This document shows positions 299-35,250 of a DNA stretch of 64,000 bases, in pieces. Position 1 is the first letter of the stretch. Each line of letters begins with the position of its first letter. Below the pieces are notes generated by a model, which had not been told where the DNA came from, did not search any database, and worked only from the letters and a program-made list of their open reading frames with translations. The DNA comes from a virus. The stretch is taken from IMG/VR virus record IMGVR_UViG_3300020187_003193, one strand, 5' to 3'. The position numbers and the translations under genes are program-made.

Positions 299-303
299 TT
301 TTA

Positions 304-1940: not shown

Positions 1941-2077
1941 TGGCAAAAGGCATCGCAGTTGGCAACTACAGAGGTGGTTCTAACAAAAAAAGACCGGGTG
2001 TTCACTCAAAAAGTAAGTCATCCAAAATTAAAGGTTCTAAGAATTACAAGAAACTGAATGTAGGTCAAGGCAAATAA
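1940..2077 (+). CDS. Small basic protein, 45 aa (not in ORF track)
   Basis: MAKGIAVGNYRGGSNKKRPGVHSKSKSSKIKGSKNYKKLNVGQGK*. It has 13 K/R and no D/E, overlaps the upstream stop (TAATG) and fills the gap exactly. Confidence 0.7.
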   Translation: MAKGIAVGNYRGGSNKKRPGVHSKSKSSKIKGSKNYKKLNVGQGK

Positions 2078-2088
2078 TATTTATATAC

Positions 2089-12973: not shown

Positions 12974-15298
12974 ATGAAAATACTCGCTTCAACTAGTTTT
13001 ATAGGCACTACAGGATATGCAAACCATGCACAATCCTTTTTTACTGCTTTAGATAAACTCACTCCTGTTAAAGTACGAAATTTTACTATAGGTAAAGGCT
13101 GGGAAGGTAACTCTAAAAATCAACACGATAAAGAGCCATACTTAACCCCCCAAATGAAGAGAATGCTTCATTCACAAACCCTATGGAACTCAGATGGTAC
13201 TAAAAGTGACCACCCTATATATTCACATGAAGAAGGATTTGTTCCTGATGTAAACATTGTTTTAAACGAACATAACCACCATTATTTCCATGATTCATAT
13301 GAGGGATATAAAATAGCATATAACGTATGGGAAACTACACGTTATTCAGAAGAATATTTTAATGCTATAAAAAACTTTGATGAATTATGGGTACCTACCC
13401 AATGGCAAAAAGACATATCTGTAAAACAAGGATATCCTGAAGATAAAGTGTTTGTTATACCCGAAGGAGTAGACGGTGATACTTTCAAACCTACATCTAA
13501 ACCTAAAAAACGAGATAAATTTCAATTTATCGTAGTAGGAAGATGGGATTATAGAAAAGGTGTAAAAGAAAGTATAGAGGCATTCCTCAAAGCATTCCCA
13601 GATAATCAAAATGTTGAACTTTTAATTAATGTTGAAAATCCCTTCCCGGTAGATGGCATGTCATCAACAGAAGAACGTTTAAAACATTACGGATTAGAGG
13701 ATGATAGAATAAAAATATTAAAGTTTTTAGATAGAAAAGAATATATTAAATTAATTCAAAACGCTGATGTATTTTTATCATGCGCTCGTGCTGAGGGATG
13801 GAATTTACCATTAATTGAAGCTTTAGCTTGTGGTATCCCTTCAATATATACAAAATGTAGCGGACAACTTGAATTCACAGAGGGTAAAGGGCTAGGTATA
13901 GGAATACTAGGAGAAGAACCTGCAACTAACAATAAAAATCTTACCTACGATCAAAACTTACCCGGTAATTTTTATACTCCCGATTTAGAGGATTTAGTTG
14001 TTAAAATAAAGGACGCATATGATAACTGGGACGTATGGAAATTATGGCATCTTAAGAGGTCTAAAGAAATACGTAAAAAGTTTTCATGGGAAAATCAAGC
14101 TAAATTAGCACATGACAGATTAAAAATTGTTAAAACTCTTACCCCTAAAACCTCCATAAATAAAGTGCCTAGGTTAGAAGTAAACTTTGTAGATGGTCCT
14201 TATGCATGTTTAAGAGATTCTAATAAAGAATATATAGTAGACTTTATTAATCGAGATATAAATAAAGTTGAATTTACTACCCCTCTAAAAAATAATCACT
14301 GGAGTAAAACTTATTATAAGTATTTTATTAATTGGGAACTAAGACTTAAAAACCAAAAAGGTGAAATATTAAATACCCACAAATATAATGCATCCAATAA
14401 ACGTGTTTATATATCATTAGGGTCAAAATCATTAGGAGATACTTTAGCATGGTTCCCTTATGTAGAAGAATTTAGAAAAAAACATAATTGTCACGTAGTT
14501 GTATCTACTTTTTGGAATCATTTCTTTGAAGGACATTATCCTGAGTTAGAATTTGTTAAACCTGGAGAGGCTGTAAATAATTTATATGCTATGTATGAAT
14601 TAGGTTGGTACTATAAAGATAATAGTAATGAACTAGACCTCTATAAACAACCCGTAGATCCTAAATCTATTACACTTCAACAAACTGCAACTAACATATT
14701 AGGTTTAGAATATAAAGAAATTATACCTAAAATAAATGTACCTGTTAAAGAGAGACCATTTAAAGAAAAATATATTGTATTCTCACCACATGCCTCAGCA
14801 TCTGCCAAATACTGGCACCATGAAACGGGGTGGCAAGATGTAATTAACTACGTTACAAACGTATTAGGTTTCAAAATGGTAATGATATCTAAAGAACCAT
14901 ACGATAGCGAATGGGAAACAAATAAACTGCCAAGAAATAAAAAATTCGAAAATATAATAGATGCTACAGGTGACCATCCAATAGAAGATATTATGAATAT
15001 GATATACTACTCAGAAATGTACATTGGTGTTTCAAGTGGTTTAGCATGGTTAACATGGGCAATCCAAAAACCAGTAGTGATGGTATCAGGATTCAGTTCA
15101 TCTTGGACCGAGTTCACTACAAAAATACAGCGAATTATAAACAAAGATGTATGTAATTCTTGCTTTAATAACTCAAAATTAGACGCAGGTGATTGGGATT
15201 GGTGCCCAAATCATAAAGATACCCCAAGACAGTTTGAATGCACTAAAAAAATATCCCCAGAACAAGTAATAAAAGGCATTACTCGTAGTCTTGTGTAA
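12974..15298 (+). CDS. Two-domain glycosyltransferase: N-terminal GT4 plus C-terminal AAH/TibC-like protein O-glycosyltransferase (heptosyltransferase family)
   Basis: GT4 part: YNVWET, VGRWDYRKG, RAEGWNLPLIEALACG. AAH/TibC-like part: SLGDTLAWFPYVEEFRKKH, YIGVSSGLAWL, VVMVSGFS, and the four-Cys finger CNSCFN...WDWCP.H...RQFECTK. Confidence 0.85.
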   Translation: MKILASTSFIGTTGYANHAQSFFTALDKLTPVKVRNFTIGKGWEGNSKNQHDKEPYLTPQMKRMLHSQTLWNSDGTKSDHPIYSHEEGFVPDVNIVLNEHNHHYFHDSYEGYKIAYNVWETTRYSEEYFNAIKNFDELWVPTQWQKDISVKQGYPEDKVFVIPEGVDGDTFKPTSKPKKRDKFQFIVVGRWDYRKGVKESIEAFLKAFPDNQNVELLINVENPFPVDGMSSTEERLKHYGLEDDRIKILKFLDRKEYIKLIQNADVFLSCARAEGWNLPLIEALACGIPSIYTKCSGQLEFTEGKGLGIGILGEEPATNNKNLTYDQNLPGNFYTPDLEDLVVKIKDAYDNWDVWKLWHLKRSKEIRKKFSWENQAKLAHDRLKIVKTLTPKTSINKVPRLEVNFVDGPYACLRDSNKEYIVDFINRDINKVEFTTPLKNNHWSKTYYKYFINWELRLKNQKGEILNTHKYNASNKRVYISLGSKSLGDTLAWFPYVEEFRKKHNCHVVVSTFWNHFFEGHYPELEFVKPGEAVNNLYAMYELGWYYKDNSNELDLYKQPVDPKSITLQQTATNILGLEYKEIIPKINVPVKERPFKEKYIVFSPHASASAKYWHHETGWQDVINYVTNVLGFKMVMISKEPYDSEWETNKLPRNKKFENIIDATGDHPIEDIMNMIYYSEMYIGVSSGLAWLTWAIQKPVVMVSGFSSSWTEFTTKIQRIINKDVCNSCFNNSKLDAGDWDWCPNHKDTPRQFECTKKISPEQVIKGITRSLV

Positions 15299-15341
15299 TA
15301 TTTATTAGGGAATAATCCTTGGTAAATAGAAATCACAATAA

Positions 15342-18300
15342 ATGGCTACAATAAGTACATCGGGTATACAGAGTGGAAGTGTAATTAAAGCTGAACACGT
15401 TCTTGACATAATAGATGCCTTAAATGGTAATACTGCAACAGGTATAGTAATATCAGGATCAGTAAGGATTACAGGAAGTTTTAATTTTGACACATCATCT
15501 TTACCTTATACACCTTTTGATGAGGCCCCCTATATTTTAGCATATAATACAGGAAGTGGAGAAGTATCTTTCTCTGAAAGAGGTGCTACTTCAGGAACTT
15601 CAGGAACATCTGGTACATCTGGTACAGATGGTACATCGGGTACATCAGGTTCATCTGGAACTTCGGGCACTTCAGGTAGTTCAGGTTCTTCAGGGTCATC
15701 AGGAAGCTCAGGCACATCCGGTAGCTCAGGCTCAAGTGGTACATCCGGCTCATCTGGAACTTCAGGTACTGATGGTACATCTGGTACATCAGGTTCATCT
15801 GGAACCTCAGGTACATCAGGTAGTTCAGGTACAGATGGTACATCAGGCACATCAGGATCTTCAGGTACAAGTGGTACATCTGGTACATCAGGTTCATCTG
15901 GAACTTCAGGCTCATCTGGCTCATCAGGTTCAAGTGGATCATCAGGCACATCTGGTTCTTCGGGTACTTCAGGTACTTCTGGTAGCTCTGGCTCATCAGG
16001 TTCATCTGGCTCTTCAGGAAGCTCAGGCACATCTGGCTCATCAGGTTCTTCAGGCACATCTGGTAGCTCAGGTTCATCAGGTTCAAGTGGATCATCAGGA
16101 ACATCTGGCTCTTCAGGTAGCTCAGGCACATCCGGTAGCTCAGGAACATCTGGTTCTTCAGGCACATCAGGTACTTCGGGTAGTGATGGAACATCGGGAT
16201 CATCAGGAAGTTCAGGAACATCAGGCTCATCAGGAACATCCGGTTCTTCAGGAAGCTCAGGCACATCCGGTTCATCTGGCTCTTCAGGAAGCTCAGGCAC
16301 ATCTGGCTCATCAGGTTCTTCAGGTACTTCTGGTTCAAGTGGAACTAGTGGAACAAGTGGTGCTGTATACTCTTCAACATCACCCTCAGAATTAACAATA
16401 GGAACTGGTACTCAAAACTTAACAGTTGGTACTGGTTTAACATATACAGCAGGACAAGGTGTTATTATCACCGAGGCTGCTGCCCCTACAACTAACTACA
16501 TGGAAGGTAGAGTAACATCATATAATGGTGGTACCGGTGCCTTAGTAGTAGATGTATTTACCGCAGAGGGAAGTGGAACATTCTCAAGCTGGAATGTAAA
16601 CTTACAATCAGCTCCTGGTACATCCGGTACATCCGGTACATCAGGTGGTACACAGATAGCAAATAACACAGGTAGTTATATGTTAACTGCTCAAGGAACT
16701 GCTGAAGTACTAGCCCATGAAGAAATTCAATTTTCAAATACTTGGTTAACAGCTTCTAATGCTATTATTCCTGGAGATTTAATAGTAGAAGGTACAGCCT
16801 CTGTTTCTTTCCTACAAAGTGTTACAGGTTCAGCCAAAATAATTGGAGACGCCTTTATTATCTTAAATAATAATACACCTGCGGAAAGATATGCAGGTAT
16901 TGTAGTTCAAGATAGTGGATCTACTAATGATACAGCTTCATTACAATTTGATGGGCAAACAAATGACTGGTTCTACGAATACACAGATGATGGAGGAGCA
17001 ACTGTAGATCATGGTGTAGTAATATTCGGAGAAGCTTACGATACTAAAGGTTCACCAATTTATCCAAGCAATAACACAATTCAAAAAGGTAATGGTGAAC
17101 ATCATATATTAGATTCAAATATTACAGATGACGATAGTCATATAAAATTAGGAATAGATACAGTAGTTTCAAGCTCTTTAGATGTTACTGGAAGCTTACA
17201 ATTAACTGGATCCTTAAATATAAGTGGCTTACAAGCCAACGCTTCTGAAGATACAATCTTAGTAATCAGCCCAGCGGGTGTAGTAGGAACAAAAGAAGGA
17301 GCAGCAAGTTCAGGTACTTCAGGTACAGATGGAACTTCAGGAACAAATGGTTCCGACGGAACAGGTGGTTCTTCAGGATCATCTGGTTCTTCAGGTTCAT
17401 CAGGAACTAATGGAACATCTGGTTCATCCGGTTCATCTGGTACAAACGGTACAGATGGCACATCTGGCAGTTCAGGCTTTTCAGGTACATCCGGTTCATC
17501 AGGTACTTCAGGTACGGATGGTACTTCAGGTAGTTCAGGCACAAATGGAACATCAGGATCTTCAGGCTCATCAGGCTCATCAGGCTCATCAGGTAGCTCA
17601 GGTTCTTCAGGTACAAATGGTACAGATGGTACATCAGGTTCTTCAGGAAGCTCGGGAACATCAGGCTCCTCAGGTTCATCCGGAACAAACGGAACAAATG
17701 GTACCTCAGGATCATCGGGTTCATCAGGTACTTCAGGTTCATCTGGTTCTTCAGGAACAAATGGAACAAATGGAACATCCGGTTCTTCAGGCACATCTGG
17801 AACTTCAGGTTCATCAGGTTCATCAGGTACAAACGGAACAAGTGGAACATCAGGTTCATCTGGAACATCAGGTACATCAGGTTCATCTGGAACTTCAGGT
17901 TCATCAGGTACATCTGGTATTGCCGGACCAACTGGCCCTACAGGACCAACAGGACCAACAGGTGCTACAGGACCTGCGGGAACGTCTGGTTCATCCGGTA
18001 CATCTGGCAGCTCAGGTACATCAGGATCATCAGGAACATCTGGTGCTACAGGACCAACAGGACCTACAGGACCAACAGGTGCAGGAGGAACATCAGGTTC
18101 TTCAGGTACATCTGGAACAACAACAATTACAGGTAATGCAAATAATAGAGTATTAACTGCAACAGGTACCGCAACTATTAATGGTGAAGCTAATTTAACC
18201 TTTGATGGTAGTACTTTAACAGTAGCAGGCTCAATAAATGAAACTTCTTCAAGAAGATTTAAGAAAAATATTACTCCTTTAGAAAACCAACTAGAAAAAT

Positions 18301-18521
18301 TATTACAATTAAACCCTGTAGAATATGATTGGGTTAAAGATGGTAAGCATGATATTGGTTTGATAGCTGAAGAAGTAAACGAATTAATCCCAGAAGTGGT
18401 TCACGTAATAGAAGATGAAGTACAAGGTATACATTACTCTAGATTAACCGCAGTTTTAATTAAAGCAGTACAAGAATTAAAACAAGAAGTAGAACTTCTT
18501 AAAGCAAAATTAAATGGCTAA
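15342..18521 (+). CDS. Collagen-like Ser/Thr Gly-X-Y fibre protein with a C-terminal peptidase S74 (intramolecular chaperone) domain
   Basis: 1059 aa with two long G-T-S/G-S-S blocks. C-terminal SSRRFKKNI...LNPVEYDW...GLIAEEV. Confidence 0.85.
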   Translation: MATISTSGIQSGSVIKAEHVLDIIDALNGNTATGIVISGSVRITGSFNFDTSSLPYTPFDEAPYILAYNTGSGEVSFSERGATSGTSGTSGTSGTDGTSGTSGSSGTSGTSGSSGSSGSSGSSGTSGSSGSSGTSGSSGTSGTDGTSGTSGSSGTSGTSGSSGTDGTSGTSGSSGTSGTSGTSGSSGTSGSSGSSGSSGSSGTSGSSGTSGTSGSSGSSGSSGSSGSSGTSGSSGSSGTSGSSGSSGSSGSSGTSGSSGSSGTSGSSGTSGSSGTSGTSGSDGTSGSSGSSGTSGSSGTSGSSGSSGTSGSSGSSGSSGTSGSSGSSGTSGSSGTSGTSGAVYSSTSPSELTIGTGTQNLTVGTGLTYTAGQGVIITEAAAPTTNYMEGRVTSYNGGTGALVVDVFTAEGSGTFSSWNVNLQSAPGTSGTSGTSGGTQIANNTGSYMLTAQGTAEVLAHEEIQFSNTWLTASNAIIPGDLIVEGTASVSFLQSVTGSAKIIGDAFIILNNNTPAERYAGIVVQDSGSTNDTASLQFDGQTNDWFYEYTDDGGATVDHGVVIFGEAYDTKGSPIYPSNNTIQKGNGEHHILDSNITDDDSHIKLGIDTVVSSSLDVTGSLQLTGSLNISGLQANASEDTILVISPAGVVGTKEGAASSGTSGTDGTSGTNGSDGTGGSSGSSGSSGSSGTNGTSGSSGSSGTNGTDGTSGSSGFSGTSGSSGTSGTDGTSGSSGTNGTSGSSGSSGSSGSSGSSGSSGTNGTDGTSGSSGSSGTSGSSGSSGTNGTNGTSGSSGSSGTSGSSGSSGTNGTNGTSGSSGTSGTSGSSGSSGTNGTSGTSGSSGTSGTSGSSGTSGSSGTSGIAGPTGPTGPTGPTGATGPAGTSGSSGTSGSSGTSGSSGTSGATGPTGPTGPTGAGGTSGSSGTSGTTTITGNANNRVLTATGTATINGEANLTFDGSTLTVAGSINETSSRRFKKNITPLENQLEKLLQLNPVEYDWVKDGKHDIGLIAEEVNELIPEVVHVIEDEVQGIHYSRLTAVLIKAVQELKQEVELLKAKLNG
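15594..16361 (+). repeat. Gly-X-Y repeat block 1 (about 85 triplets, GTS/GSS/GTD)
   Basis: Gly at every third codon. 9-nt units such as tcaggtaca, tctggttca and tcaggaact. Confidence 0.95.
17313..18116 (+). repeat. Gly-X-Y repeat block 2 (about 89 triplets, [12 protein letters not shown])
   Basis: Uninterrupted Gly-X-Y register. Confidence 0.95.
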
Positions 18522-18891
18522 GAATGTTAGAATAGTACCTGCTTCTGGTTCTATCTACTTCACAGGTGATGGATATGATATAACAGGATCAGTAGTACTT
18601 AAAACTTTAGGGAATACAGAAGACCTTGCTTTCGCTGTTGCCGATAGTAATGAACCTATCCTTCTCATATCAAAAGAATCTGGTAGAGTAGCAGTAGGAA
18701 TATCATCAGCATCAGCTAAATTAGAAGTATTTTCAAACACAGATGAAGATCTTTTATTAATTAGAAACTCCAATGGAGGTATAAAAGTAAACAATGAAGG
18801 AGTTTTAGTATTATCTAACTATGACGGCGAACCTACTCCCGTAAGTGGGGGGATATATTACAGTAATTCCCAATTCTTTGTTGGGCCCTAA
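18514..18891 (+). CDS. Small fibre-associated structural protein
   Basis: 125 aa, overlaps the upstream stop, beta-rich with SGS/TGS/SAS tripeptides. Confidence 0.55.
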   Translation: MAKNVRIVPASGSIYFTGDGYDITGSVVLKTLGNTEDLAFAVADSNEPILLISKESGRVAVGISSASAKLEVFSNTDEDLLLIRNSNGGIKVNNEGVLVLSNYDGEPTPVSGGIYYSNSQFFVGP

Positions 18892-18946
18892 ATATTTATT
18901 AAAGAACAATCACAAATTCAACCCACAACTAAAAAACACATAACAA

Positions 18947-21900
18947 ATGGCAGAATGGAAAAAGGTCGTCGTCTCCGGTAGCGACGTATCACAATTAACA
19001 AATGATGCGAATTACTTAGTAGATGGCCAAGAGGGAGCAGTCCTTTCCGGTTCATTTACAGGTTCATTCTCAGGAGACGGATCTGGACTTACTGGTATTG
19101 CCTCTACTCTAAGCTTAGCAGGAGATGCAGGTACTGACTCTATCAATCTCAAAACCGAAACATTAACTATTGACGGTACTAAGGGTATTTCTACTTCCAT
19201 TGATGCCGCTAGTAATACAATTACTGTTAGTGGTAATGCTTTAAGCGCATCTGTTTCTACTGAAACTAACGCAAATAAAGTTGCTGCTGCTACAAATGCA
19301 AGTAATATTACTGCATTAAGTGGTTCAGCTTCAGCTGATAGAACAGCAATTAAAGGTGCTGCTACTACATTAGCAGGAAGAGTTACTACAGCTGAAGGAG
19401 AAATTGATACTCTTCAAAGTGATGCTACTGCATTAACTACAAGAGTAACTACAGCTGAAGGGGATATTTCCGATATCGAAACTGCAGCTACAACTTTAGC
19501 AGGTAGAGTAACTACGGCTGAAGGAGACATTTCTGATATCGAAACCGCCGCTACAACATTAGCAGGGAGAGTTTCTGATAACGAAACTGCTATTGCAACT
19601 AATGCAACTGATATTGCTACTGAAAAAGGTAGAGTAGATGCAATTTTAGACGCTTCATCAGCTGATAAAGATTCATTTGCAGAGATTGTAACTTTAATCA
19701 ACTCAGTAGATACAGCTAACGACGACGCACTTGCAGGATACGTATTATCTAATAATACTAGATCAACTACAATTGAAAGTGCCTCTGCTGCATTATCAGG
19801 TAGAGTAACTTCAAACGAAGATGCAATTGCTGCATTAGACGATACTTACGCTACAGAAGCTGAAGTTGCTTCTGCTGTTCTTGCTTTAAGCGGATCAGCT
19901 GCAGCTAAACAAGCTGCTAACACGGCTGCTATCGTTGCAAATGATGGTGAAATTGCTACGTTACAATCAGATGCTACTGCTTTAACAGCTAGAGTAGGTG
20001 CTAACGAAGATGCCATTGCAGCCTTAGACGATACTTACGCTACAGATGCAGAAATTGCAAGTGCTGTAAGCGCATTAAGTGGTTCAGCTTCTGCAGATAG
20101 AACAATAATTAAAAATAGTGTTAGTTCTGAAGCTACTACAAGAGCAGCTGCAGATACAACATTACAGGGAAATATTGACAGTGAAGCTTCTACAAGAGCA
20201 GCAGCTGATACAACCTTACAAAGTAATATAGATTCTGAAGCAGCTACTAGATTAGCTAATGATAATACATTACAATCTAACATTAATGCACTAAGCAGCT
20301 CAGCTTCTACAGACAGAAATGTAATAAAATCTGAATTAGACGGTAAAATTACTACTGAAAAAGGTAGAATTGACGCTATTTTAAGTGCAGCCGATGCTGA
20401 TTACGATACTTTTGCTGAAATTGTAGGATTAATAAACTCAGTAGATACTGAAAATGATACAGCGTTTGGTACATATGTAACAAATAATAATGCTAGAGTA
20501 GCAGCTGTAGAAGGAGAAGTAGATGCTTTACAACTAGATTCAGCTTCATTTTCTGTAAGAGTAAAAGCAAACGAAGATGCAATTTCTGACTTAGATAATG
20601 TTTACGCTACAGATGCACAAGTAACTAGTGCAGTTTCTGCTTTAAGTAGTTCAGCTGCTGCTAAACAAGCAATTAATGCTGCTTCAATTACTTCTTTAAG
20701 CGGTTCAGCTTCTACAGACAGAAATGTAATTAAATCTGCTCTACAAGCTAATATCGATGCTGAAGAAACAGCAAGAATTGCAGCCGACGGAGTATTACAA
20801 GGTAATATAGATTCAGAAGCCTCTACAAGATCAGCTGCTGATGCAACTTTACAAAGTAATATTACAGCATTAAGCGGATCAGCTCACGATAAGAGAGAGC
20901 TAATCAAAACTGATGTTGCTACTAACGTAAGTGCTATTTCTGGATTAGATACTAGATTAACTACTGCCGAAGGAGATATTACAGATATCGAAACAGCAGC
21001 TTCTACATTAGCTGGAAGAGTTACTACTAACGAAGGAAATATTGCAACTAATGCTTCTGGCATAGCTGCTAACGTAAGTAGTATTTCTGCATTAAGCAGT
21101 TCAGCTTCAACAGATAGAAATGCTATAAAATCCGAATTAGAAGGAGATATTTCTTCATTAAGCGGATCAGTTTCTACAGATATTCAAGCAGAAAAAGGTA
21201 GAATTGATGCAATACTTTTAGCTTCAGATGCTGATAAGGATTCATTTGCAGAAATCGTTACCTTAATCAACTCTGTTGATACAGAAAATGATTCAGCATT
21301 TGCAGGATACGTTTCTACAAATGATGCAAGATCTACTACAATTGAAAGTGCTTCTGCTGCTTTAGCAACAAGAGTAACTTCAAATGAAGATGCAATTGCA
21401 GATTTAGATAACGTTTACGCTACAGATGCTCAAGTAACTTCTGCAGTAAATACCATTAGTGGATCAGCTTCAGCAGACAGAACAGTTATCAAAACAGCTG
21501 CCACTGCTTTAACAAGCAGAGTTTCTACAAACGAAAGTGATATTACTGCAATCGAAAATGCAGCTACTGCTTTAAATAGTAGAGTAGGTGCTAACGAAGA
21601 TGCAATTGCTGCCTTAGATGATACTTATGCTACAGATGCTCAAGTTACTAGTGCCGTAAGTGCCCTTAGTGGATCAGCTTCTACAGACAGAAATGCTATT
21701 AAATCTGAATTAGCTTCTGATATTTCAGACGAAGCTACTGCAAGATCTTCTGCTGATACAACATTACAAGGAAATATAGATTCAGAAGCTACTACAAGAG
21801 CAGCTGCTGATACAACATTACAAGGAAATATTGACAGTGAAGCAACAGCTAGAGCTTCAGCTGATAGTACATTACAATCTAATATTAATAGCTTATCAGG

Positions 21901-24900: not shown

Positions 24901-25117
24901 CGAAGGTTCAGGAACTGGTCACGCTTATATATTCGACCCAGTATCTGACAGATTTGGATTTAACGCAGCTGTTGCCCACAACGCTGGAACTGCTACTCCA
25001 TCAGCATTTGCTGCTGCAGTAATAGACGAAGCCGCAGGACACAGTGATTCAGCTGAATACCAAAAAGCTGGTAACATTAGAGTTGCTGCAAACGGTGATA
25101 TTTTTATCTACTCGTAA
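18947..25117 (+). CDS. Giant modular coiled-coil fibre/whisker protein, 2056 aa
   Basis: Ala/Thr/Ser/Asp-rich heptad-like modules and seven EKGR(I/V)DAIL...FAEIV.LINSVDT.ND units. C-terminal beta domains. Confidence 0.8.
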   Translation: MAEWKKVVVSGSDVSQLTNDANYLVDGQEGAVLSGSFTGSFSGDGSGLTGIASTLSLAGDAGTDSINLKTETLTIDGTKGISTSIDAASNTITVSGNALSASVSTETNANKVAAATNASNITALSGSASADRTAIKGAATTLAGRVTTAEGEIDTLQSDATALTTRVTTAEGDISDIETAATTLAGRVTTAEGDISDIETAATTLAGRVSDNETAIATNATDIATEKGRVDAILDASSADKDSFAEIVTLINSVDTANDDALAGYVLSNNTRSTTIESASAALSGRVTSNEDAIAALDDTYATEAEVASAVLALSGSAAAKQAANTAAIVANDGEIATLQSDATALTARVGANEDAIAALDDTYATDAEIASAVSALSGSASADRTIIKNSVSSEATTRAAADTTLQGNIDSEASTRAAADTTLQSNIDSEAATRLANDNTLQSNINALSSSASTDRNVIKSELDGKITTEKGRIDAILSAADADYDTFAEIVGLINSVDTENDTAFGTYVTNNNARVAAVEGEVDALQLDSASFSVRVKANEDAISDLDNVYATDAQVTSAVSALSSSAAAKQAINAASITSLSGSASTDRNVIKSALQANIDAEETARIAADGVLQGNIDSEASTRSAADATLQSNITALSGSAHDKRELIKTDVATNVSAISGLDTRLTTAEGDITDIETAASTLAGRVTTNEGNIATNASGIAANVSSISALSSSASTDRNAIKSELEGDISSLSGSVSTDIQAEKGRIDAILLASDADKDSFAEIVTLINSVDTENDSAFAGYVSTNDARSTTIESASAALATRVTSNEDAIADLDNVYATDAQVTSAVNTISGSASADRTVIKTAATALTSRVSTNESDITAIENAATALNSRVGANEDAIAALDDTYATDAQVTSAVSALSGSASTDRNAIKSELASDISDEATARSSADTTLQGNIDSEATTRAAADTTLQGNIDSEATARASADSTLQSNINSLSGSASADRTAIKASVATEKGRIDAILSAADADKDSFAEIVTLINSVDTENDTAFAGYVSTNDARVLAVEGDITDIETAATALTSRVGANEDAIAALDDTYATEAEVATAVSDHSGSASTARELIKTDLNSLSGSASTDRNAIKSELLSDISDEETRALAAEGVLQDNIDAEETARTTADSTLQSNITALSGSAHVKREAIKADVATNASNIATNTADIATEKGRIDAILDASEADKDSFAEIVTLINSVDTENDTAFGTYVTNNNSRSTTIESASAALAGRVTTAEGEIDTLQSDASTLSGRVDTAESDINTIESASAALSGRVTANESALASLDDTYATETEVSDAVSALSSSAAAKQAINAAAITSLSGSASTDRNAIKSELDGKITTEKGRIDAILSAADADKDSFAEIVTLINSVDTENDTAFAGYVSTNDARVLAVEGEVDALQLDSASFSTRVLANEEAIADLDNVYATDAQVTSAVNALSGSASADRTVIKASIVSETSVRSSADTTLQSNIDSEATTRAAADTTLQGNIDAEETARIAADGTLQSNITALSGSAHVKREAIKADVATNTSAIATEKGRIDAILDASDADKDSFAEIVTLINSVDTENDTAFGSYVTSNNAKVTKLEATASEHAALLADGVVDITSAQTITGDKTFTGEVVIGGNAFPTDSGLYGQTFTTDGNGQLTWTETPGSGSTKKLNQTEAAVTWSFLHDLDEVYPMVQVYDSNGDMVIPERIESIDQNNVKIYFSEPTTGVAAAMVGQMGISASNATRATSASVADRATTLSADATASFALLAGSARNADSASVAAIATELSADATASYALLASTVHDGNISTAKIADDAVTADKLADTDVTAGSYGSSTAIPTFTVDAQGRLTAAGEASISTDLNIAGDSGTDTVGSSDTLTFSGTANEIVTAVTDNTVTVSLPDDVTIGNDLTVTTDASIGGNLTVTGNFSVLGDTTTVNTSNLLVEDKFILLNSGSADPDTGGIIIDEGSGTGHAYIFDPVSDRFGFNAAVAHNAGTATPSAFAAAVIDEAAGHSDSAEYQKAGNIRVAANGDIFIYS
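19622..23790 (+). repeat. Seven dispersed ~40-aa EKGRIDAIL..ADKDSFAEIVTLINSVDTEND modules with shuffled spacer modules
   Basis: Module starts at 19622, 20357, 21191, 21947, 22556, 23066 and 23642. Confidence 0.9.
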
Positions 25118-25134
25118 CAACTAAATAACAATTT

Positions 25135-25167
25135 AAGAGCCCCTTTGCTAACGCAGAGGGGTTTCTT
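25135..25167 (+). terminator. Rho-independent terminator
   Basis: AAGAGCCCCTTTGC-TAAC-GCAGAGGGGTTTCTT. Confidence 0.8.
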
Positions 25168-25195
25168 ATATTTATGATAAACATACTATAACGTT

Positions 25196-25405
25196 ATGGG
25201 ATTATTAGACAAAATTACAAGAAAAGAACAAGCAGCTCCTTCAACACCTAAGATATCTAAAGAAGACTTATCTTTAAATGCTGAAGAAACAAAAATTTTA
25301 TTACACTTAATTAAAAATAGTAATTTTAAAGGAGATAGTGTAGAATTAGTATACGAACTCACTAAAAAACTCCAGTCAGTACTTACGGTTCTGTCTCAAA
25401 ATTAA
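25196..25405 (+). CDS. Small hypothetical protein, 69 aa
   Basis: Has its own ATATTTAT motif and a GTTATG start context. Confidence 0.6.
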   Translation: MGLLDKITRKEQAAPSTPKISKEDLSLNAEETKILLHLIKNSNFKGDSVELVYELTKKLQSVLTVLSQN

Positions 25406-25481
25406 TATTTATACTGGAGTATTATCGGCCCCTAGGGGAAGTGGACATCCTATGATGTAACCAACCATAATAAAATAGTAT

Positions 25482-28400
25482 ATGCCAAATTGGAAAAAAT
25501 TAATCGTCAGTGGTTCTGACGCAAACCTATCTTCATTACACGTAGCAGGAGCATTAACCGCCTCATCTGCTTACTTAGAATCTGCCTCAATTGGTCATTT
25601 ACAGACCATATACGAGACAGCTTCCGTCATTTATAGCTCAGGTTCAACCAAATTTGGAGATACACCAGATGATACTCATGAAGTAACTGGTTCTTTACTA
25701 GTTAAAGGAAACACAAATGTAGAAGGTCACATTATACCTTCCAATGACAATACCTACGATTTAGGTTCACCTACTAAACAATTTAGAGATTTATTTTTAT
25801 CCTCTGCCTCTTTATATATTGATGGAACAAAAGTTCTATCTTCTAATGCAGATACACTTACTTTTACAACAGATGTAGGACAGAGTATAAAATTACTAGA
25901 GACAGGAGGAGACGATATAACTCTTCAAACTGATACGGGTAATATAGAATTAAAAGGAACTGTAGAAATACAATCCGGTAAAAAAATCACAGATAGTTCA
26001 GGTAATATAGTATTATTTGGAAATTCTATAGGAATAACAGGTAGTATAGAAACTACGGGAACAATAGATGGTATAGACCTGCAAGCATATTCAGGATCAA
26101 TTAATACTAGAATCATATCATTAGAATCGGGTTCAGCAGATGGTACATCAGGAAGCTCAGGATCTTCAGGATCATCGGGTTCATCAGGAACATCAGGTTC
26201 ATCTGGATCTTCAGGTAGCTCAGGTTCTTCAGGTACAAATGGTACAGACGGAACTTCAGGATCATCTGGCTCATCAGGAACATCAGGCTCATCAGGACCT
26301 TCAGGTTCATCTGGTACATCTGGTAGCTCGGGTACTTCAGGTTCAAGTGGTTCAAGTGGTACATCCGGTAGCTCTGGTACTTCAGGTACAAGTGGTTCAT
26401 CAGGAACATCAGGAAATTCAGGCTCAAGCGGTTCTTCAGGTTCATCAGGATCTTCAGGTTCATCTGGTACAGATGGTACATCAGGTTCAAGCGGATCTTC
26501 AGGTTCATCAGGAAGTTCAGGCTCAAGTGGCTCTTCAGGTTCATCTGGTACATCCGGAAGCTCGGGCTCATCAGGTACAAATGGTACAGATGGAACTTCA
26601 GGCTCATCAGGTTCATCAGGTACTTCTGGAGAACAGGGAATACAGGGAGAAACAGGCCCTGCTGGTGACAATGGTACATCAGGAAGTTCAGGATCTTCAG
26701 GATCAGATGGAACTTCAGGTTCATCAGGTACTTCAGGTGTAGATGGAGCAGACGGAACATCCGGTAGCTCAGGTTCATCTGGAATAGATGGAACAAGTGG
26801 TGTTGATGGAACTTCAGGTTCTTCAGGTACATCAGGAGAAGCAGGCTCAAGTGGCTCATCAGGTTCATCAGGTTCTTCAGGAACATCTGGCGAAACCGGC
26901 CCAACAGGCCCAGCAGGTAATGACGGAACATCAGGAAGCTCAGGTTCTTCAGGTGCAATTGGCCCCGTAGGTCCCTTAGGACCAACAGGACCAACAGGAG
27001 CACAAGGTCCAACAGGACCACAAGGAGTAGCAGGTACAGGTATCACAATGCAAGGTAGCGTTGCGACAACAGGAGATTTACCTAGCTCAAACAATACACA
27101 AGGTGATGCTTATATAGTCCAAACAGACGATTCACTTCATATATGGGATGGAACAGTATGGGTAAGTGGAGGTTCAATTCAAGGACCAACTGGTCCAACA
27201 GGAGCTACAGGACCAACTGGACCAACTGGACCACAAGGTTTAACAGGATCTGATGGAGCAACTGGCCCAACAGGACCAACTGGAGCATCAGGTACATCAG
27301 GAAGTTCAGGTTCATCCGGAGCAACCGGAGCTACAGGAGCTACTGGCCCACAAGGTGCTACAGGACCTGCAGGTACTTCTGGTTCTTCAGGAACATCAGG
27401 AGCTACAGGAGCTACTGGCCCACAGGGTGCTACAGGACCACAAGGTGCAACTGGACCAACAGGCGCAACAGGAGCAACAGGCGCTTCAGGTACATCAGGA
27501 AGTTCAGGAACATCAGGAGCAACAGGCGCAACAGGTGCAACTGGAGCATCAGGTACATCAGGCTCTTCAGGCACATCGGGTTCATCAGGAACATCAGGAA
27601 GTTCAGGAACATCAGGCGCAACAGGAGCCACAGGTGCTACTGGTCCACAAGGTGCAACAGGTCCCGCAGGAACATCAGGTTCAAGTGGTACATCTGGAGC
27701 AACAGGAGCCACAGGTGCAACTGGAGCTACTGGAGCATCAGGTACATCGGGCTCATCTGGAACTTCAGGTTCATCTGGAACATCAGGTGTAAATGGAGGA
27801 ACTGGACCAACAGGACCTACTGGAGCAGCAGGAACATCAGGTTCATCAGGAACATCAGGTGCTACAGGACCTACAGGACCAACAGGCGCAAAAGGTAATA
27901 CTGGAAATACTGGACCTACGGGCCCAACAGGAGCAACAGGTGCTTCAGGAACATCAGGTTCTTCTGGTACATCAGGTACAGTTCCCTTTGCTACTGCAGC
28001 GGTAACAAGTACAACTACTACAGCTTTTATTTCTGAGTTGTATAGTGATGGATACTTAGCTACAAACTCACTTAGAGCAGGAAAAACATCTTGGTCATAT
28101 GCAGGAAATGGTGATTTATCAGATACAGGATATGGTACCTTCGAATTAGCAGGCTGTTCTATATTAGGATGGGATGCTGGAGGGCTTGAAACTGTAATGG
28201 TTATTAGACCCACTACTGGGGGTGGAGGAGGACAAATCCTAGTTTATAATAACCAGTCCACATCATATTCACCAGGCTGGAGACAAATCCTAACATCAAC
28301 TACAGACGGATATCTACCTAGGTTGTATGATACAAACAACACAAACTATTATTTAGATCCTGCAAGTACATCTGTTTTTAATACAATATCTGCTGGGGGT

Positions 28401-29330
28401 AATATTACTGCTACTGAATTTTATGCCAATAACTGGTTTAGAAATAATAATACCAATGAAGGCATGTACAACCAAGCAACGGGGCAACATTGGTATTCTG
28501 ATGATGATGATTGGTGGAACATAGGAGGAGGAACTACTGCTAATGGTATTAGGTTTAGAGATGAGCATGGTGGTACTATAAGGGGAGCAGTTTATGCTGA
28601 TAATACAAATAGTGTTGGTTTATTAGATTCTGATCTAAACTGGGCTATAAAACATGTTCGGGATTCAAGAACTGAATTTTACATAAACAATGTTGAAGTA
28701 GCAGAAATAAACGCAGACTATTTACAACATAATAGCGATGTTAGGTCTCCTTTATTTTATATATCAGATAGTACAGCTAATAGATTTACGGCAGGGGCAC
28801 TTTATTTAAGCTCCACCTCTCCTACTATGTACTTTAGAGACACCAATGGAAATTCTGCAATGCTCCATAATAACTCTAATTTATTTTATATATTAAGGGG
28901 TAATACTAATTCTGAAACATGGACGCAAGTTAATGGACAGTGGCCTGTTTATTGGGATTTATCAAATAATAATGCTACTTTTGGAGGGAATTTAACTTTA
29001 GCAGGTACTATAACTGAAAATTCAGATATAAAGTTAAAAGAAAATATAGAAACTATAGATGGTGCACTGGATAAAGTAAACCAACTTAGAGGAGTATATT
29101 ATAATAAAATAGTAGACGAAGATAAAAAAAGAAGAATAGGTGTAATAGCACAAGAAATTCAAGAAGTTCTTCCTGAAGTTGTGGATCTACATCAAGATGC
29201 AGAAGATACTGAAGGTACGCTAACTGTATCATATAGTAATATTACAGCTTTGCTTATTGAAGGTATGAAAGAGTTATCAAAACAAAACAAAGATTTGCTC
29301 GCTAGAATAGAAAAATTAGAAAAACAATAA
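25482..29330 (+). CDS. Collagen-like tail fibre with a receptor-binding region and a C-terminal peptidase S74 domain
   Basis: 1282 aa. Gly-X-Y blocks at 26142-27041 and 27183-27977 are separated by a small knob domain. YYLDPAS and NNWFR modules. C-terminal SDIKLKENI...LRGVYY...GVIAQE. Confidence 0.85.
26142..27977 (+). repeat. Gly-X-Y repeats ([15 protein letters not shown]) interrupted once by a ~47-aa knob
   Basis: Gly at every third residue in both blocks. Confidence 0.95.
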
Positions 29331-29333
29331 ATT

Positions 29334-29660
29334 ATGAATATTACTTATACCTGGTCAATTACAGGACTAAAAAGATCCCCATCATTAAACGGATTAACTA
29401 ATGTTGTTACTGGGATCAAATTTAACTACACAGGAGTAGATTCAGAATCTGGAGAAAGTTATACCTTTCCAGGAGCAGTTCCAGTAGGAGAACCTTCCCC
29501 TGATAACTTTACATCCTTTGAGAGTTTAACTGAAGCTGATATTATTAGTTGGGCACAAGCAAATCATCCTACAGACCATATGAATAAAAGGGTTGAGGAA
29601 GCTATTGCTAGGAAAATTTCTCCTATTGAAGAAGATATTCCTCTCCCATGGTCAAGTTAG
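29334..29660 (+). CDS. Small fibre-associated protein
   Basis: 108 aa. ITYTWSITGLK...FESLTEADIISW, a type commonly found right after S74-bearing fibre genes. Confidence 0.5.
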   Translation: MNITYTWSITGLKRSPSLNGLTNVVTGIKFNYTGVDSESGESYTFPGAVPVGEPSPDNFTSFESLTEADIISWAQANHPTDHMNKRVEEAIARKISPIEEDIPLPWSS

Positions 29661-29755
29661 TTATAAAAACTTAAACAAAACTAATAAAGTTTATTCAAAA
29701 TAATTAATATTTATCATAGAATAAAGCTCATTAACCCAACTCAAAACAACAAACA

Positions 29756-32584
29756 ATGCAAATACACGGCGCAGAAATAATTGGAGAATTATCCCTAGAT
29801 CCCAATGCAATAGCAGATCTAACAGGTTCATTTTCAGGTTCTCATTCGGGATCATTCACAGGTTCTTTCCTAGGTGACGGATCAAATTTAACAGGTGTTA
29901 CCGCTGAATGGGATGGTTCTCATACAGGGAATGGTTCAATTTCAGGAGACCTTACTGTAGGTAATTTAATTACTGATGGTAATGTAGATGGTGTAGATGT
30001 TTCTGCATTAGATACCAGAGTAACAGATGTAGAAGGTGATGTAGCAGCAATTTTACTATCCGCAGATGCTGATAAAGATTCATTTGCTGAAATCGTAACC
30101 TTAATCAACTCTGTTGATACAACTAACGACAGTGCATTTGCGTCTCACGCAACTGATACAGACAACCCACACTCTGTTACAAAATCACAAGTTGGGTTAG
30201 GAAATGCTGATAACACATCTGATGCCAATAAACCAATATCTACTGCACAACAAGCAGCATTAGACTTAAAAGCTGATATCGCTACTCTAGATAGCACATA
30301 CGCAACCGATGCTCAAGTAACAAATGCAGTTTCTGCTTTAAGTGGATCTGCTTCTGCTGATAGAACATCAATTAAAGCCACACTTTCAGCTTTAGATAGT
30401 ACATATGCTACAGATGCTCAAGTAACAAGCGCAGTTTCTGCTTTAAGTAGTTCAGCAGCAGCTAAATCAGCTATAAATGCTGCAAACATTGCTACTAACA
30501 CTTCAGCAATTGCAGCTTTAGATAGTACATATGCTACAGATGCTCAAGTTACAAGTGCTGTAAACGTACTTAGTGGTTCAGCTGCTGCAAAACAAGCAAT
30601 TAACGCGGCTGCAATCGCAAGCATAAATGCAAAAGATCCTGTATTAACAGTATCTGGAGACGCAAGTGGTACAGCTACTTTTACCAATTTAGGTAATGCT
30701 ACATTAAGTTTAACTATTGCAGATGATTCTCACAACCACGTTATTTCTAACGTAGATGGATTACAAGCAGCCCTTGATTCAAAATCTAGTGGTGCTGATT
30801 TAACAACATTAACCGGAAGAGTAAGTACTGCCGAAGGTGAAATCGATGCTTTACAATTAGATTCAGCTTCATTCTCAACAAGAGTATTAGCAAACGAAAG
30901 TAAATTATCAGGAATTGAAGCAGGCGCCACAGGTGATCAAACAGCAGCAGAAATTTTAACTGCTATTAAAACAGTTGATGGAGCAGGAAGTGGATTAGAT
31001 GCTGATTTATTAGACGGACAGTCATCAGCATACTATGCTACTGCAACATCAGTATCTACAAACACATCAGCAATTGCTACTATTAACGCTAAAGATCCTG
31101 TATTAACAGTATCTGGAGATGCAAGTGGAACAGCAACATTCACAAACTTAGGTAACGCTTCAATGACGTTAACCATCGCTGATGATTCACACAACCATAC
31201 TATTGCTAACGTTGATGGTTTACAAACAGCTCTTAATGCAAAAGCTCCATTAGCTTCACCAGCATTAACTGGCAACCCAACTGCCCCTACACAAACTGGG
31301 ACAGATGAATCTACTAAGATTGCTACTACAGCCTTTGTACAAGGTAGAATTGATGCTATTATAGGAACTGCAGGTTCAACTTTAGATACATTAGGAGAAT
31401 TATCCGCTTCAATGGCAGCTGACGAATCAGGATTAGCGGCATTAACAACAGAAGTAGGAACAAAATTAGCAAAAGCTTCTAACCTATCAGATTTAACAAA
31501 CGCTGGAGCTGCAAGAACAAATATTGGATTAGGATCAGGTAATAACGTAGCCTTTACAGGAGTTACTACCGATACTCTTAGTGCAAATGGTTTATTAGAA
31601 CAAGCCTCAGAATCTACCACATTAGTAATTAGCCCAACAGGGGTTGTAGGATTTAGAGAAAATGCTGCTTCTTCTGGAACATCAGGTTCTTCAGGAACTT
31701 CAGGTACTTCAGGTTCATCGGGAACCTCAGGAACATCAGGTTCATCAGGAACTTCAGGAGCAACAGGAGCAACTGGACCTACAGGACCAACAGGTGCAAC
31801 AGGAGCCTCAGGTTCATCGGGAACATCAGGAACTTCAGGTAGTTCAGGAACTTCAGGTTCATCCGGAACTTCAGGAGCAACAGGAGCAACTGGGCCTACA
31901 GGACCAACGGGTGCAACAGGAGCTAAAGGTAACACAGGTAACACAGGAGCCGCAGGAACATCAGGTAGTTCGGGAACATCAGGTAGTTCAGGAACCTCCG
32001 GTGTAAAAGGAAATACAGGAGCAACAGGACCAACAGGAGCATCAGGCTCATCCGGAACTTCAGGTTCATCCGGAACCTCAGGTGTAAACGGTGGAACAGG
32101 TCCAACAGGACCAACTGGACCAACAGGACCTGCAGGACCAAGTACGGTAACTACTATTTCATTAGCAGACCGGATTCAACATACAGGCGATACTGATACT
32201 TATATTCAATTCCATGCAGCAAACCAATGGAGAGTTGTAACAGGTGGTGCTGAAAGATTAGAAGTAAATAACAGTGCAGTAACAGTAACAGGTACATTTA
32301 CAGAAAACTCCGATAGAAGATTAAAAGAAAACATAGTTCAAATTGGAGGTGCTCTTAGTTTAACAGAACAATTAAGAGGTGTATACTATAACAGAAGCGA
32401 TAGAGATGACAAATCTAAAATGGTTGGATTTATAGCTCAAGAAGTACAAGAAGTAATACCTGAAGTTGTAACTACCAACGAAGAAACAGGAATTTTATCT
32501 GTTTCATATACCCACCTTATAGCAGTTTTAGTAGAATCAATTAAGGAATTATCTGCTAGAGTAAAAGAATTAGAAAGTAAATAA
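29756..32584 (+). CDS. Mosaic fibre (coiled-coil modules plus Gly-X-Y block) with a C-terminal peptidase S74 domain
   Basis: 942 aa. Shares modules with the 18947 and 15342 ORFs. Motifs GLDADLLDG, PLASPALTGNPTAPT and C-terminal SDRRLKENI. Confidence 0.82.
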   Translation: MQIHGAEIIGELSLDPNAIADLTGSFSGSHSGSFTGSFLGDGSNLTGVTAEWDGSHTGNGSISGDLTVGNLITDGNVDGVDVSALDTRVTDVEGDVAAILLSADADKDSFAEIVTLINSVDTTNDSAFASHATDTDNPHSVTKSQVGLGNADNTSDANKPISTAQQAALDLKADIATLDSTYATDAQVTNAVSALSGSASADRTSIKATLSALDSTYATDAQVTSAVSALSSSAAAKSAINAANIATNTSAIAALDSTYATDAQVTSAVNVLSGSAAAKQAINAAAIASINAKDPVLTVSGDASGTATFTNLGNATLSLTIADDSHNHVISNVDGLQAALDSKSSGADLTTLTGRVSTAEGEIDALQLDSASFSTRVLANESKLSGIEAGATGDQTAAEILTAIKTVDGAGSGLDADLLDGQSSAYYATATSVSTNTSAIATINAKDPVLTVSGDASGTATFTNLGNASMTLTIADDSHNHTIANVDGLQTALNAKAPLASPALTGNPTAPTQTGTDESTKIATTAFVQGRIDAIIGTAGSTLDTLGELSASMAADESGLAALTTEVGTKLAKASNLSDLTNAGAARTNIGLGSGNNVAFTGVTTDTLSANGLLEQASESTTLVISPTGVVGFRENAASSGTSGSSGTSGTSGSSGTSGTSGSSGTSGATGATGPTGPTGATGASGSSGTSGTSGSSGTSGSSGTSGATGATGPTGPTGATGAKGNTGNTGAAGTSGSSGTSGSSGTSGVKGNTGATGPTGASGSSGTSGSSGTSGVNGGTGPTGPTGPTGPAGPSTVTTISLADRIQHTGDTDTYIQFHAANQWRVVTGGAERLEVNNSAVTVTGTFTENSDRRLKENIVQIGGALSLTEQLRGVYYNRSDRDDKSKMVGFIAQEVQEVIPEVVTTNEETGILSVSYTHLIAVLVESIKELSARVKELESK
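31676..32140 (+). repeat. Gly-X-Y repeat block (about 50 triplets)
   Basis: [12 protein letters not shown] register. Confidence 0.93.
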
Positions 32585-34764: not shown

Positions 34765-35250
34765 ATGGCAGTATTAGACCCAAACGAAATAATGTTCACC
34801 GCATTTGAACCTAAAGTACAAAATAGGTTTATAATGTATGTTGACGGAATCCCAGCTTACCTAATTAAATCAGCTACTGCACCAGGATTCGAAGCAGGTG
34901 AGATCGTATTAGACCACATCAATGTTTACCGTAAAGTAAAAGGTAAAGTAAGATGGAATGATATGACACTTAACCTATATGATCCAGTAACACCATCTGG
35001 AGCTCAAGCCGTAATGGAATGGGCACGTTTAGCTCACGAAAGTGTAACAGGTAGAGACGGATATAGTGATTTCTACAAGAAAGACTTAACATTAGATATC
35101 TTAGGTCCTGTAGGAGACGTAGTTGGAGAATGGGTAATTAAAGGTGCCTATGTTAAAACTGCAACATTCGGTGAATACGATTGGTCAAATGAGGCCGCAG
35201 TTAACTTAACAGTTAACATCGCAATGGATTACTGCATATTAAATTTCTAA
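34765..35250 (+). CDS. Tail tube protein (gp19-like)
   Basis: FEPKVQNRFIM, WNDMTLNLYDP, EWVIKGAY and DYCILNF. Follows the sheath gene. Confidence 0.9.
   Translation: MAVLDPNEIMFTAFEPKVQNRFIMYVDGIPAYLIKSATAPGFEAGEIVLDHINVYRKVKGKVRWNDMTLNLYDPVTPSGAQAVMEWARLAHESVTGRDGYSDFYKKDLTLDILGPVGDVVGEWVIKGAYVKTATFGEYDWSNEAAVNLTVNIAMDYCILNF

Follow-up and report, generated by a model that had tools for sequence, protein, structure and literature searches.

A GT4–BAHT fusion glycosyltransferase encoded beside Ser/Thr-rich collagen-like fibre genes in a myovirus, a candidate system for virion O-glycosylation

Results

The window analysed here is the whole 64,000-nucleotide stretch of the virus record IMGVR_UViG_3300020187_003193 from IMG/VR, and our subject is a gene in it for a 774-residue glycosyltransferase (12974-15298, + strand), which is followed on the same strand by the genes of three collagen-like fibres. 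A sequence-only reading of the window, made without database searches, had seen in this arrangement a phage-encoded system for O-glycosylation of the virion, in which a GT4 domain and a domain of the AAH/TibC type are joined in one protein. Pfam, TIGR04414 and TibC matches bear out the fusion. The N-terminal domain (residues ~1-390; 12974-14143, +) is a retaining GT-B enzyme of the GT4 type, for which the Pfam models Glycos_transf_1 and Glyco_trans_1_4 both exceed their cut-offs; Glycos_transf_1 covers residues 175-302 (E 2e-16, 60.3 bits, cut-off 26.4), other GT4-type models match too, and the EX7E motif lies at E274-E282. The C-terminal domain (residues ~400-774; 14171-15295, +) belongs to the bacterial autotransporter heptosyltransferase (BAHT) family of TibC and AAH, known for adding heptose to adhesins of E. 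coli, and comprises a beta-barrel, a GT-B catalytic core and a four-Cys finger. Residues 406-770 align with positions 17-372 of the 374 in the NCBIfam model TIGR04414 (hepto_Aah_TibC; 299.6 bits, cut-off 200), and a phmmer comparison with TibC (PDB 4rap/4rb4) covers residues 403-769 at E 5e-51. Compared with the score for this protein-specific model, those of lipopolysaccharide (LPS) heptosyltransferase models, at 19-30 bits, are low. The motifs quoted in the sequence-only reading are all in place (LGDTLAWFPY at 487, GVSSGLAW at 685, CNSC at 727, WCPNH at 743 and FECT at 754), as is the finger formed by C727, C730, C744 and C756.

An AlphaFold2 model of the enzyme, built from 20 homologues (pLDDT 83.1), agrees with these assignments. 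Its best matches in the PDB are the TibC structures 4rb4 and 4rap, with template modelling scores of 0.80-0.82 normalised to TibC, followed by GT4 enzymes that match the N-terminal half, namely MshA, PimA, HepE, WaaG, BshA and a chlorovirus glycosyltransferase. In the model, strands at residues 400-482 precede alpha/beta lobes, as expected of the N-terminal beta-barrel and the GT-B catalytic domain of a BAHT. The boundary suggested earlier, at residue ~470, is therefore too late, since the beta-barrel belongs to the domain and places its start near residue 400. The profile and structure comparisons proposed at that stage thus gave an end-to-end alignment of the C-terminal domain with TibC/AAH. 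By its model score, its fold and its catalytic residues the domain is a member of the BAHT family, and the protein joins an intact GT4 domain to a complete BAHT-family domain.

The functional residues of TibC were defined in its structure paper (PMC4358343), and we mapped them onto the enzyme by alignment with TibC, together with column counts over 79 homologues, 21 of them from a classical clade and 58 from a phage clade (see below). The catalytic base Asp-110 corresponds to D489 and the iron ligands Cys-339, 342, 358 and 370 to C727, C730, C744 and C756, all invariant (79/79). Of the two beta-phosphate contacts, Thr-226 is S608 and Lys-230 is K612; Trp-305, which contacts the heptose O4, is W692, and Phe-368, part of a hydrophobic cluster with the thumb tip, is F754. 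The positions of Asp-110, Lys-230, Trp-305, Phe-368 and the four Cys are invariant or nearly so among the homologues. Pro-300, the stereoselectivity position, which is Ser in AAH, is S687. Because the TibC residues map to D489, K612, W692 and the four Cys, the alignment indicates that the catalytic machinery and the metal finger are intact; it likewise indicates that the contact to the nucleotide base is lost, the adenine-contacting Arg-286 being I673. In TibC, the R286A exchange reduces or abolishes activity (PMC4358343). This Arg is present in 21/21 members of the classical clade and in 34 of the 58 in the phage clade, and in the remaining 24 it is replaced by small or hydrophobic residues.

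Downstream of the enzyme gene lie the three fibres that had been described as chaperoned by S74 domains. All three were found, and they are interspersed with a large fibre that contains no collagen run and with two small open reading frames (ORFs). Fibre 1 (1059 aa; 15342-18521, +) has collagen runs at residues 85-342 and 658-927, with 76 GSS and 65 GTS triplets, and a Peptidase_S74 domain at 969-1021. A 125-aa ORF without a family match (18514-18891, +) overlaps its end and is followed by a 2056-aa fibre rich in Ser, Thr and Ala, with a repeated coiled segment (18947-25117, +). Fibre 2 (1282 aa; 25482-29330, +) has collagen runs at 221-520 and 568-834, made up of 57 GSS, 41 GTS, 25 GAT and 17 GPT triplets, and Peptidase_S74 at 1181-1234. 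After a 108-aa ORF that matches phrog_7802, a family with no assigned function (29334-29660, +), comes fibre 3 (942 aa; 29756-32584, +), with a single run at 641-796 (15 GTS, 10 GSS, 8 GPT and 7 GAT) and Peptidase_S74 at 852-905. The Pfam Collagen model matches fibres 1, 2 and 3 with E-values of 2.5e-70, 8.6e-79 and 4.6e-21, and the C-terminal Peptidase_S74 domains score 56.4, 60.7 and 53.5 bits (cut-off 22). That the fibres consist largely of collagen triplets holds for fibre 1 (50% of residues in collagen runs) and fibre 2 (44%) but not for fibre 3 (17%). Within the runs, Ser occupies the Y position in 81%, 56% and 54% of triplets in fibres 1, 2 and 3, and Ser or Thr the X position in 92%, 56% and 48%; proline and charged residues are rare, with 8 Pro and 9 charged residues among the 528 residues of the runs in fibre 1. 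We regard fibres 1 and 2 as the proposed acceptors and the 2056-aa fibre as an alternative one.

Two side observations concern these fibre genes. A segment with the motif ADKDSFAEIVTLINSVDT occurs about 8 times in the 2056-aa fibre and the same motif stands at the start of fibre 3, which suggests from sequence that the two proteins share exchangeable modules. Long ORFs on the opposite strand or in other frames run across the collagen repeats (15530-16395, 17138-18156, 25925-28213 and 31033-32006) and are by-products of repeat composition, not genes.

The same fusion occurs in seven IMG/VR loci, with N-terminal halves that are 55-75% identical and BAHT domains that are 42-74% identical. In these window-like loci a G[ST]S collagen ORF adjoins the fusion in 7/7 cases, lying upstream, downstream or on both sides according to the locus. 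Among more distant phages, the IMG/VR locus L008 encodes a GT4-methyltransferase-BAHT fusion, the methyltransferase part of which is confirmed by Pfam. In the cultured Microcystis phage Mel-JY01, the two domains lie about 480 residues apart in a 1226-aa protein that GenBank annotates as a methyltransferase FkbM, and the gene adjoins a 1016-aa ORF with 77 GTS and 57 GSS triplets. In the megaphage LR756501, a GT4-BAHT protein is encoded 3.6 kb from a GTS/GSS ORF on the opposite strand. As for the Mel-JY01 record itself (PP395634.1), the 1016-aa GTS/GSS frame (2-3049, +) is not annotated as one gene, and an antisense ORF within it (739-2298) is annotated as a hypothetical protein; the collagen gene probably wraps around the record ends, because the + frame is still open where the linear record begins.

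A profile scan of IMG/VR found this type of BAHT in at least 557 viral contigs, 80 of which were fetched for locus comparison. Most of the 80 belong to a sister clade of stand-alone BAHTs of about 400 aa that are 45-50% identical to the BAHT domain of the window. In these loci a giant collagen ORF (up to 2091 aa and 548 triplets) comes first, followed by an 885-aa GT4, a 319-aa GT4, the BAHT, and then sheath, tube and hub. Since the 319-aa GT4 of one such locus (L048) is weakly similar to the GT4 domain of the window (22% identity, E 3e-5), the fusion appears to correspond to two adjacent genes of the sister clade, the 319-aa GT4 and the BAHT. The 885-aa GT4 of the same locus was considered as a counterpart and set aside, as it shows no pairwise similarity to the window domain.

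As a control we took 80 loci of the same lineage for which the tail sheath served as anchor and combined them with the BAHT-anchored set, requiring an upstream flank of at least 8 kb and counting a locus as collagen-positive if it held at least 10 G[ST][ST] triplets. A Ser/Thr-rich collagen ORF was present in 27 of the 30 BAHT-positive loci compared with 0/19 BAHT-negative relatives (Fisher 8e-11, a value that ignores relatedness and is descriptive only). The exceptions among the 30 are L028, L063 and L064. When searched whole, the contigs of L028 and L064 hold a GTS/GSS collagen ORF beyond the flank, and L063, a close relative of L064, probably has one farther along its contig; in another seeming exception, L087, the whole contig again holds a GTS/GSS collagen ORF farther away. 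Among five long BAHT-negative relatives, two of them 100% complete, four are without any collagen gene. The fifth (contig G005, loci L254-L265), with collagen-like ORFs of 1668 and 721 aa at 29-39 kb, has a sheath 91% identical to that of Flavobacterium phage immuto, and its triplets are of the GAT/GVS/GLT kind, with Thr at Y and a hydrophobic residue at X, not G[ST]S. Collagen fibres as such thus do not require the enzyme, the presence of which goes along with the G[ST]S type alone. In the part of the immuto genome examined, we found neither the enzyme nor a Gly-X-Y run.

The association extends to bacteria. The nearest bacterial matches are contigs of metagenome-assembled genomes (MAGs), among them Winogradskyella, Flavobacteriales, Bacteroidetes and Ignavibacteriaceae, with GTS/GSS ORFs; in more distant matches (Burkholderiaceae, Bradyrhizobium, Lentisphaerota and Bacillota) the adjoining gene is a large adhesin-like ORF and there is no collagen. 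In a tree of 79 BAHT domains, a split with 100% support separates a classical clade, to which belong E. coli plasmid enzymes that carry the annotation autotransporter O-heptosyltransferase, from a phage clade. Collagen is found in 0/21 rows of the classical clade, where 14/21 have an adjacent large adhesin-like ORF, and in 44/58 rows of the phage clade. The label 'ADH' on some viral rows of this tree is an artefact of the rule that assigned it (a Ser/Thr-rich ORF of at least 700 aa within 1.5 kb) and does not denote an adhesin. Two cellular loci, both from MAGs and both in the collagen-linked clade, carry the pair among housekeeping genes. On a 275-kb Arenicellales contig (L181, 9974-11850), a stand-alone BAHT gene converges on that of a 216-aa CarboxypepD_reg and GSS-collagen protein, with two-component, TolB, MlaE and Na/H-exchanger genes as neighbours; on a Methylococcales contig (L176, 7282-9545), a 316-aa GTT/GTS collagen protein is encoded directly upstream of a stand-alone BAHT, near cytochrome c, subtilase, SNF symporter and UvrA genes. 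The co-occurrence check suggested by the sequence-only reading therefore came out in favour of the link, with enzyme and Ser/Thr-rich collagen fibres found together in divergent viral contigs and two cellular genomes, and with enzyme-free relatives that have no such fibres. Taken together, these enzymes form a BAHT subfamily whose genes, in phages and also in some bacteria, are linked to those of G-[Ser/Thr]-Ser collagen-like proteins. The linkage has persisted where genes were fused, split or inverted and where they passed between viral and cellular genomes, as a functional pair of enzyme and substrate predicts.

When 1.84 billion cluster representatives were searched with HMMER, 762 clusters reached E 1e-30 or better. 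Among the top 150 representatives, most are 500-2033 aa long and have the BAHT domain at varying positions. Of the 55 closest, as scanned with Pfam, 23 have a GT4 domain, 15 an FkbM methyltransferase, 6 a Methyltransf_24, 3 a rhamnosyl O-methyltransferase/CmcI and 2 a GT2 domain, a range of fusion partners that is consistent with a short and in some cases methylated glycan being built step by step on an acceptor protein. In P0006, P0010 and other representatives (824-1032 aa), two or three separate stretches match the BAHT domain, and such proteins may contain tandem BAHT domains.

The sequence-only reading had cautioned that the donor may not be heptose, and this caution proved well placed. 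Five related phage records, of which two have a completeness of 92% or more, gave no gmhA and only sub-threshold cytidylyltransferase-like matches, and none of 81 sampled Flavobacteriaceae genomes has a gmhA match over the cut-off. Matches to gmhA close to the cut-off occur in three MAGs that contain related contigs, binning into a MAG being weak evidence of host. No sugar-nucleotide enzymes were found among the other ORFs of the 64-kb window. Heptose is, in our estimate, a possible but doubtful choice of donated sugar. Because the Arg is replaced, and because gmhA is missing from the phage records and below cut-off in Flavobacteriaceae, we would keep the BAHT family name, which fits the sequence, and would not transfer the label 'heptosyl' to the 774-aa enzyme, the conserved Trp notwithstanding.

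The enzyme gene was also said to lie inside the structural module, and so it does. The window covers structural and replication genes of an uncultured aquatic myovirus with a capsid of the T4 type, and its structural block includes a prohead protease, the major capsid protein (5070-6704), PhoH, a head-completion-like protein, the tail sheath (32997-34724, +), the tail tube (34765-35250) and a baseplate hub. In the sister clade, the BAHT gene stands directly upstream of the sheath gene. Farther along the window are gp32-like, UvsX-like, DnaB-like, ribonucleotide reductase and thymidylate synthase genes. Judged by capsid protein, Flavobacterium phage immuto (59.5%) is the closest cultured relative, ahead of Microcystis phage Mel-JY01 (50.7%) and Rhodothermus phage RM378 (37.5%); the host may plausibly belong to the Bacteroidota. 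The enzyme gene is co-directional with its neighbours and tightly spaced in the late structural block, at distances of 39 and 44 bases. A terminator-like hairpin with a 12-bp stem and a T-rich tail, assigned by consensus match only, lies at 25137-25164 (+), right after the 2056-aa fibre gene, and is the sole strong one from the enzyme gene to fibre 2, which suggests that the enzyme gene, fibre 1 and the 2056-aa fibre gene form one transcription unit. A sigma-70 promoter scan was uninformative for this phage, with 40 matches against 58.6 in shuffled sequence.

Discussion

We consider it likely, judging from sequence and gene linkage, that the 774-aa fusion is a bifunctional protein O-glycosyltransferase acting in the cytoplasm of the infected cell on the phage's own collagen-like fibres. 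In the mechanism that we propose, the BAHT domain, an inverting GT9-like enzyme with D489 as base, would attach the first sugar to Ser, and perhaps Thr, of G-S-S and G-T-S triplets, and the GT4 domain would then add a second sugar. The earlier suggestion of a disaccharide, with one domain priming and the other extending, fits the comparative data, because GT4 and BAHT are separate adjacent genes in the sister clade and because BAHT domains are often fused with GT4, GT2 or sugar methyltransferase domains; in such relatives, the extra GT4, GT2 and O-methyltransferase domains may build longer or methylated glycans. The nucleotide-sugar donor would come from the host and for this phage is perhaps not ADP-heptose. 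The C-terminal S74 chaperone would trimerise the chains and then be cut off, as in other S74 fibres. By analogy with the glycosylated BclA and with the glycosylated Thr of worm cuticle collagen, both taken up below, the dense glycan coat probably stabilises, or shields, triple helices that are almost without proline or charge. TibC, for its part, modifies Ser, not Thr, and acts directly on peptides, and at both mapped sites of TibA the modified Ser lies in a Gly/Ala-rich loop (PMC4358343).

Several observations weigh against this interpretation. The known BAHT substrates are beta-helical autotransporter repeats and not collagen triple helices. The enzyme has I673 in place of the adenine-contacting Arg-286 of TibC, and the thumb-tip pair aligns poorly, with phmmer setting W-E on F-V and the multiple alignment showing an insertion relative to the classical clade; in TibC, the hydrophobic tip F265/V266 of the beta-hairpin thumb is needed for the dodecamer (PMC4358343). 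The 636 kb of the megaphage LR756504 include a lone BAHT homologue without any collagen gene, and in contig G003 the collagen ORF lies far from the enzyme. Finally, the co-occurrence counts include related contigs and the tree implies essentially one origin of the collagen-linked clade, so that the statistics overstate independence.

The acceptor could be another virion protein, such as the 2056-aa fibre, which shares the terminator-bounded block with the enzyme, the non-collagen parts of the fibres, or the capsid or tail-tube proteins. Characterised BAHT substrates are non-collagen repeats, and mycobacteriophage glycans are reported on capsid and tail-tube subunits, as cited in PMC12619734. 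We nevertheless hold this to be unlikely, since the feature common to the examined loci of the collagen-linked clade, including the two cellular ones, is the G[ST]S collagen ORF and not a fibre of the 2056-aa type, and since G[ST]S collagen is missing from the BAHT-negative relatives, in which capsid, tube and other fibres are present. The Arg replacement could also mean that the BAHT domain is catalytically dead, or merely a chaperone that binds the fibre, the R286A mutant of TibC being largely inactive. Against such decay, the invariant positions include the catalytic Asp, the Lys that binds phosphate, the Trp that contacts the sugar and those of the iron finger, the catalytic positions are kept among window-like relatives whose BAHT domains are 66-74% identical, and the small or hydrophobic replacements in 24/58 members of the phage clade resemble an altered donor pocket; we judge a dead domain very improbable.

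A target on the host, for example an adhesin, a gliding-motility protein or LPS, might instead be modified for superinfection exclusion or takeover, in which case the linkage with fibre genes would be mere gene-order history. GT9 relatives do act on the LPS core, a neighbouring GT4 is filed by PHROGs under 'moron, auxiliary metabolic gene', and serotype-changing phage glycosyltransferases are known (PMC12619734). This appears distinctly improbable to us for a gene that has its place within the late structural block, with gaps of 39 and 44 bases to the adjoining genes, and whose product passes the protein-specific BAHT cut-off with no more than 19-30 bits for LPS heptosyltransferase models; moreover, the linkage persists through fusion, fission, strand inversion and the move to cellular genomes. 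Glycosylation of hypermodified phage DNA is the case to which we give the least credence, considering it extremely improbable: 35 kb separate the enzyme gene, which is part of the structural module, from the genes of nucleotide metabolism, BAHT is paired in the cellular loci with collagen-like proteins and not with DNA-modification genes, and we know of no BAHT member that acts on DNA. What speaks for it is that the window has two thymidylate-synthase-family genes, a QueD-like gene and 2-oxoglutarate (2OG) oxygenases, and that viral DNA-hypermodifying glycosyltransferases are known, as cited in PMC12619734.

Modification of the phage's own collagen-like fibres, the reading that we prefer, has partial precedents in several systems. 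TibC and AAH (TIGR04414; PDB 4RAP, 4RB4) resemble the window enzyme in full-length match, fold, catalytic Asp, beta-phosphate Lys, sugar-contact Trp and four-Cys finger, and also in that their gene adjoins that of a long repetitive Ser-rich surface fibre, here the would-be target of cytoplasmic hyper-glycosylation. The window enzyme differs in adjoining phage collagen-like G-X-Y fibres and no autotransporter, in its fusion to GT4, in having Ile for the adenine-contact Arg and a thumb tip that aligns poorly, and in belonging to a separate, fully supported clade. GtfA/GtfB, which act on Gram-positive serine-rich repeat adhesins, offer a second parallel, in that a GT4 enzyme starts dense cytoplasmic O-glycosylation of Ser-rich repeats and others extend it. 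The window GT4 domain matches GtfA models weakly and far below the family cut-off (TIGR02918 27.8 bits; PDB 4pqg E 0.02), and unlike the GtfA/GtfB systems, the window system has no accessory Sec system and has a collagen-like acceptor.

Sugars on collagen-like helices also have precedents. In the cuticle collagen of the worm Riftia, glycosylated threonine stabilises a triple helix that is poor in hydroxyproline; galactose on Thr at the Y position replaces hydroxyproline as the stabiliser of the helix. This is an animal extracellular collagen modified by unrelated enzymes. BclA, from the exosporium of Bacillus anthracis, is a cellular spore protein whose triplets are rich in Thr, and it differs from the window fibres in that unrelated enzymes build its GalNAc-rhamnose-anthrose glycan and in that the Thr of GPT is modified rather than the Ser of GSS/GTS. 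It forms a trimeric collagen-like filament with a densely O-glycosylated collagen-like region (PMC10050317). In mycobacteriophages, phage glycosyltransferases near structural genes modify the phages' own virion proteins, a situation that the present phage resembles in its genomic linkage. The glycans are reported there at the C-termini of capsid and tail-tube subunits (Freeman et al. 2023, as cited in PMC12619734 and PMC12801897). Those phages infect Actinobacteria, their enzymes are not known to be of BAHT type, and collagen-like repeats are not known to play a part.

Our literature search found no paper on a phage BAHT or on the pairing of BAHT with collagen. What was already known is phage virion glycosylation, with other enzymes and targets; the present system departs from characterised BAHTs in substrate class, fusion, one donor contact and clade. 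If our interpretation is true, BAHTs are not confined to the autotransporter adhesins of Proteobacteria, and a larger branch of the family (the 762 clusters at E 1e-30 or better) serves collagen-like proteins, mostly of phages. The fibres would then be the first densely O-glycosylated phage fibres outside the mycobacteriophage capsid and tube cases, and the enzyme the first to be assigned to glycosylation of prokaryotic or viral G-S-S/G-T-S collagen. Glycosylation would also explain the stability of triple helices that are almost without proline or charge, and it would be relevant to host recognition, to how well abundant marine and freshwater phages withstand proteases and grazing, and to the glyco-engineering of collagen-like materials. 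More tentatively, and as a speculation that we regard as possible rather than probable, the large BAHT branch may make a sugar-stabilised 'glyco-collagen' by means of multi-domain assembly-line enzymes (GT4, GT2 and sugar O-methyltransferase), in which a dense coat of non-heptose, partly methylated O-glycans would be needed for the folding or stability of the proline-poor, uncharged G-Ser/Thr-Ser helices of the long fibres of abundant aquatic myoviruses and of small surface proteins in some bacteria.

Two further groups of genes lie in the distal part of the window. Two 2OG-Fe(II) oxygenase genes (58402-58977 and 61313-61903) both match PF13640, which we take to be a prolyl-4-hydroxylase-like family, and the second also matches PF13759; a possible role of their products is hydroxylation of fibre Pro residues in GPT/GPQ triplets, another is nucleotide modification. 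Two full-length thymidylate-synthase-family genes (49798-50664 and 58974-59849; E 1.7e-93 and 1.2e-92) are accompanied by one for a QueD-like 6-pyruvoyl-tetrahydropterin synthase (62585-63049), and together these genes suggest that the phage DNA contains modified bases.

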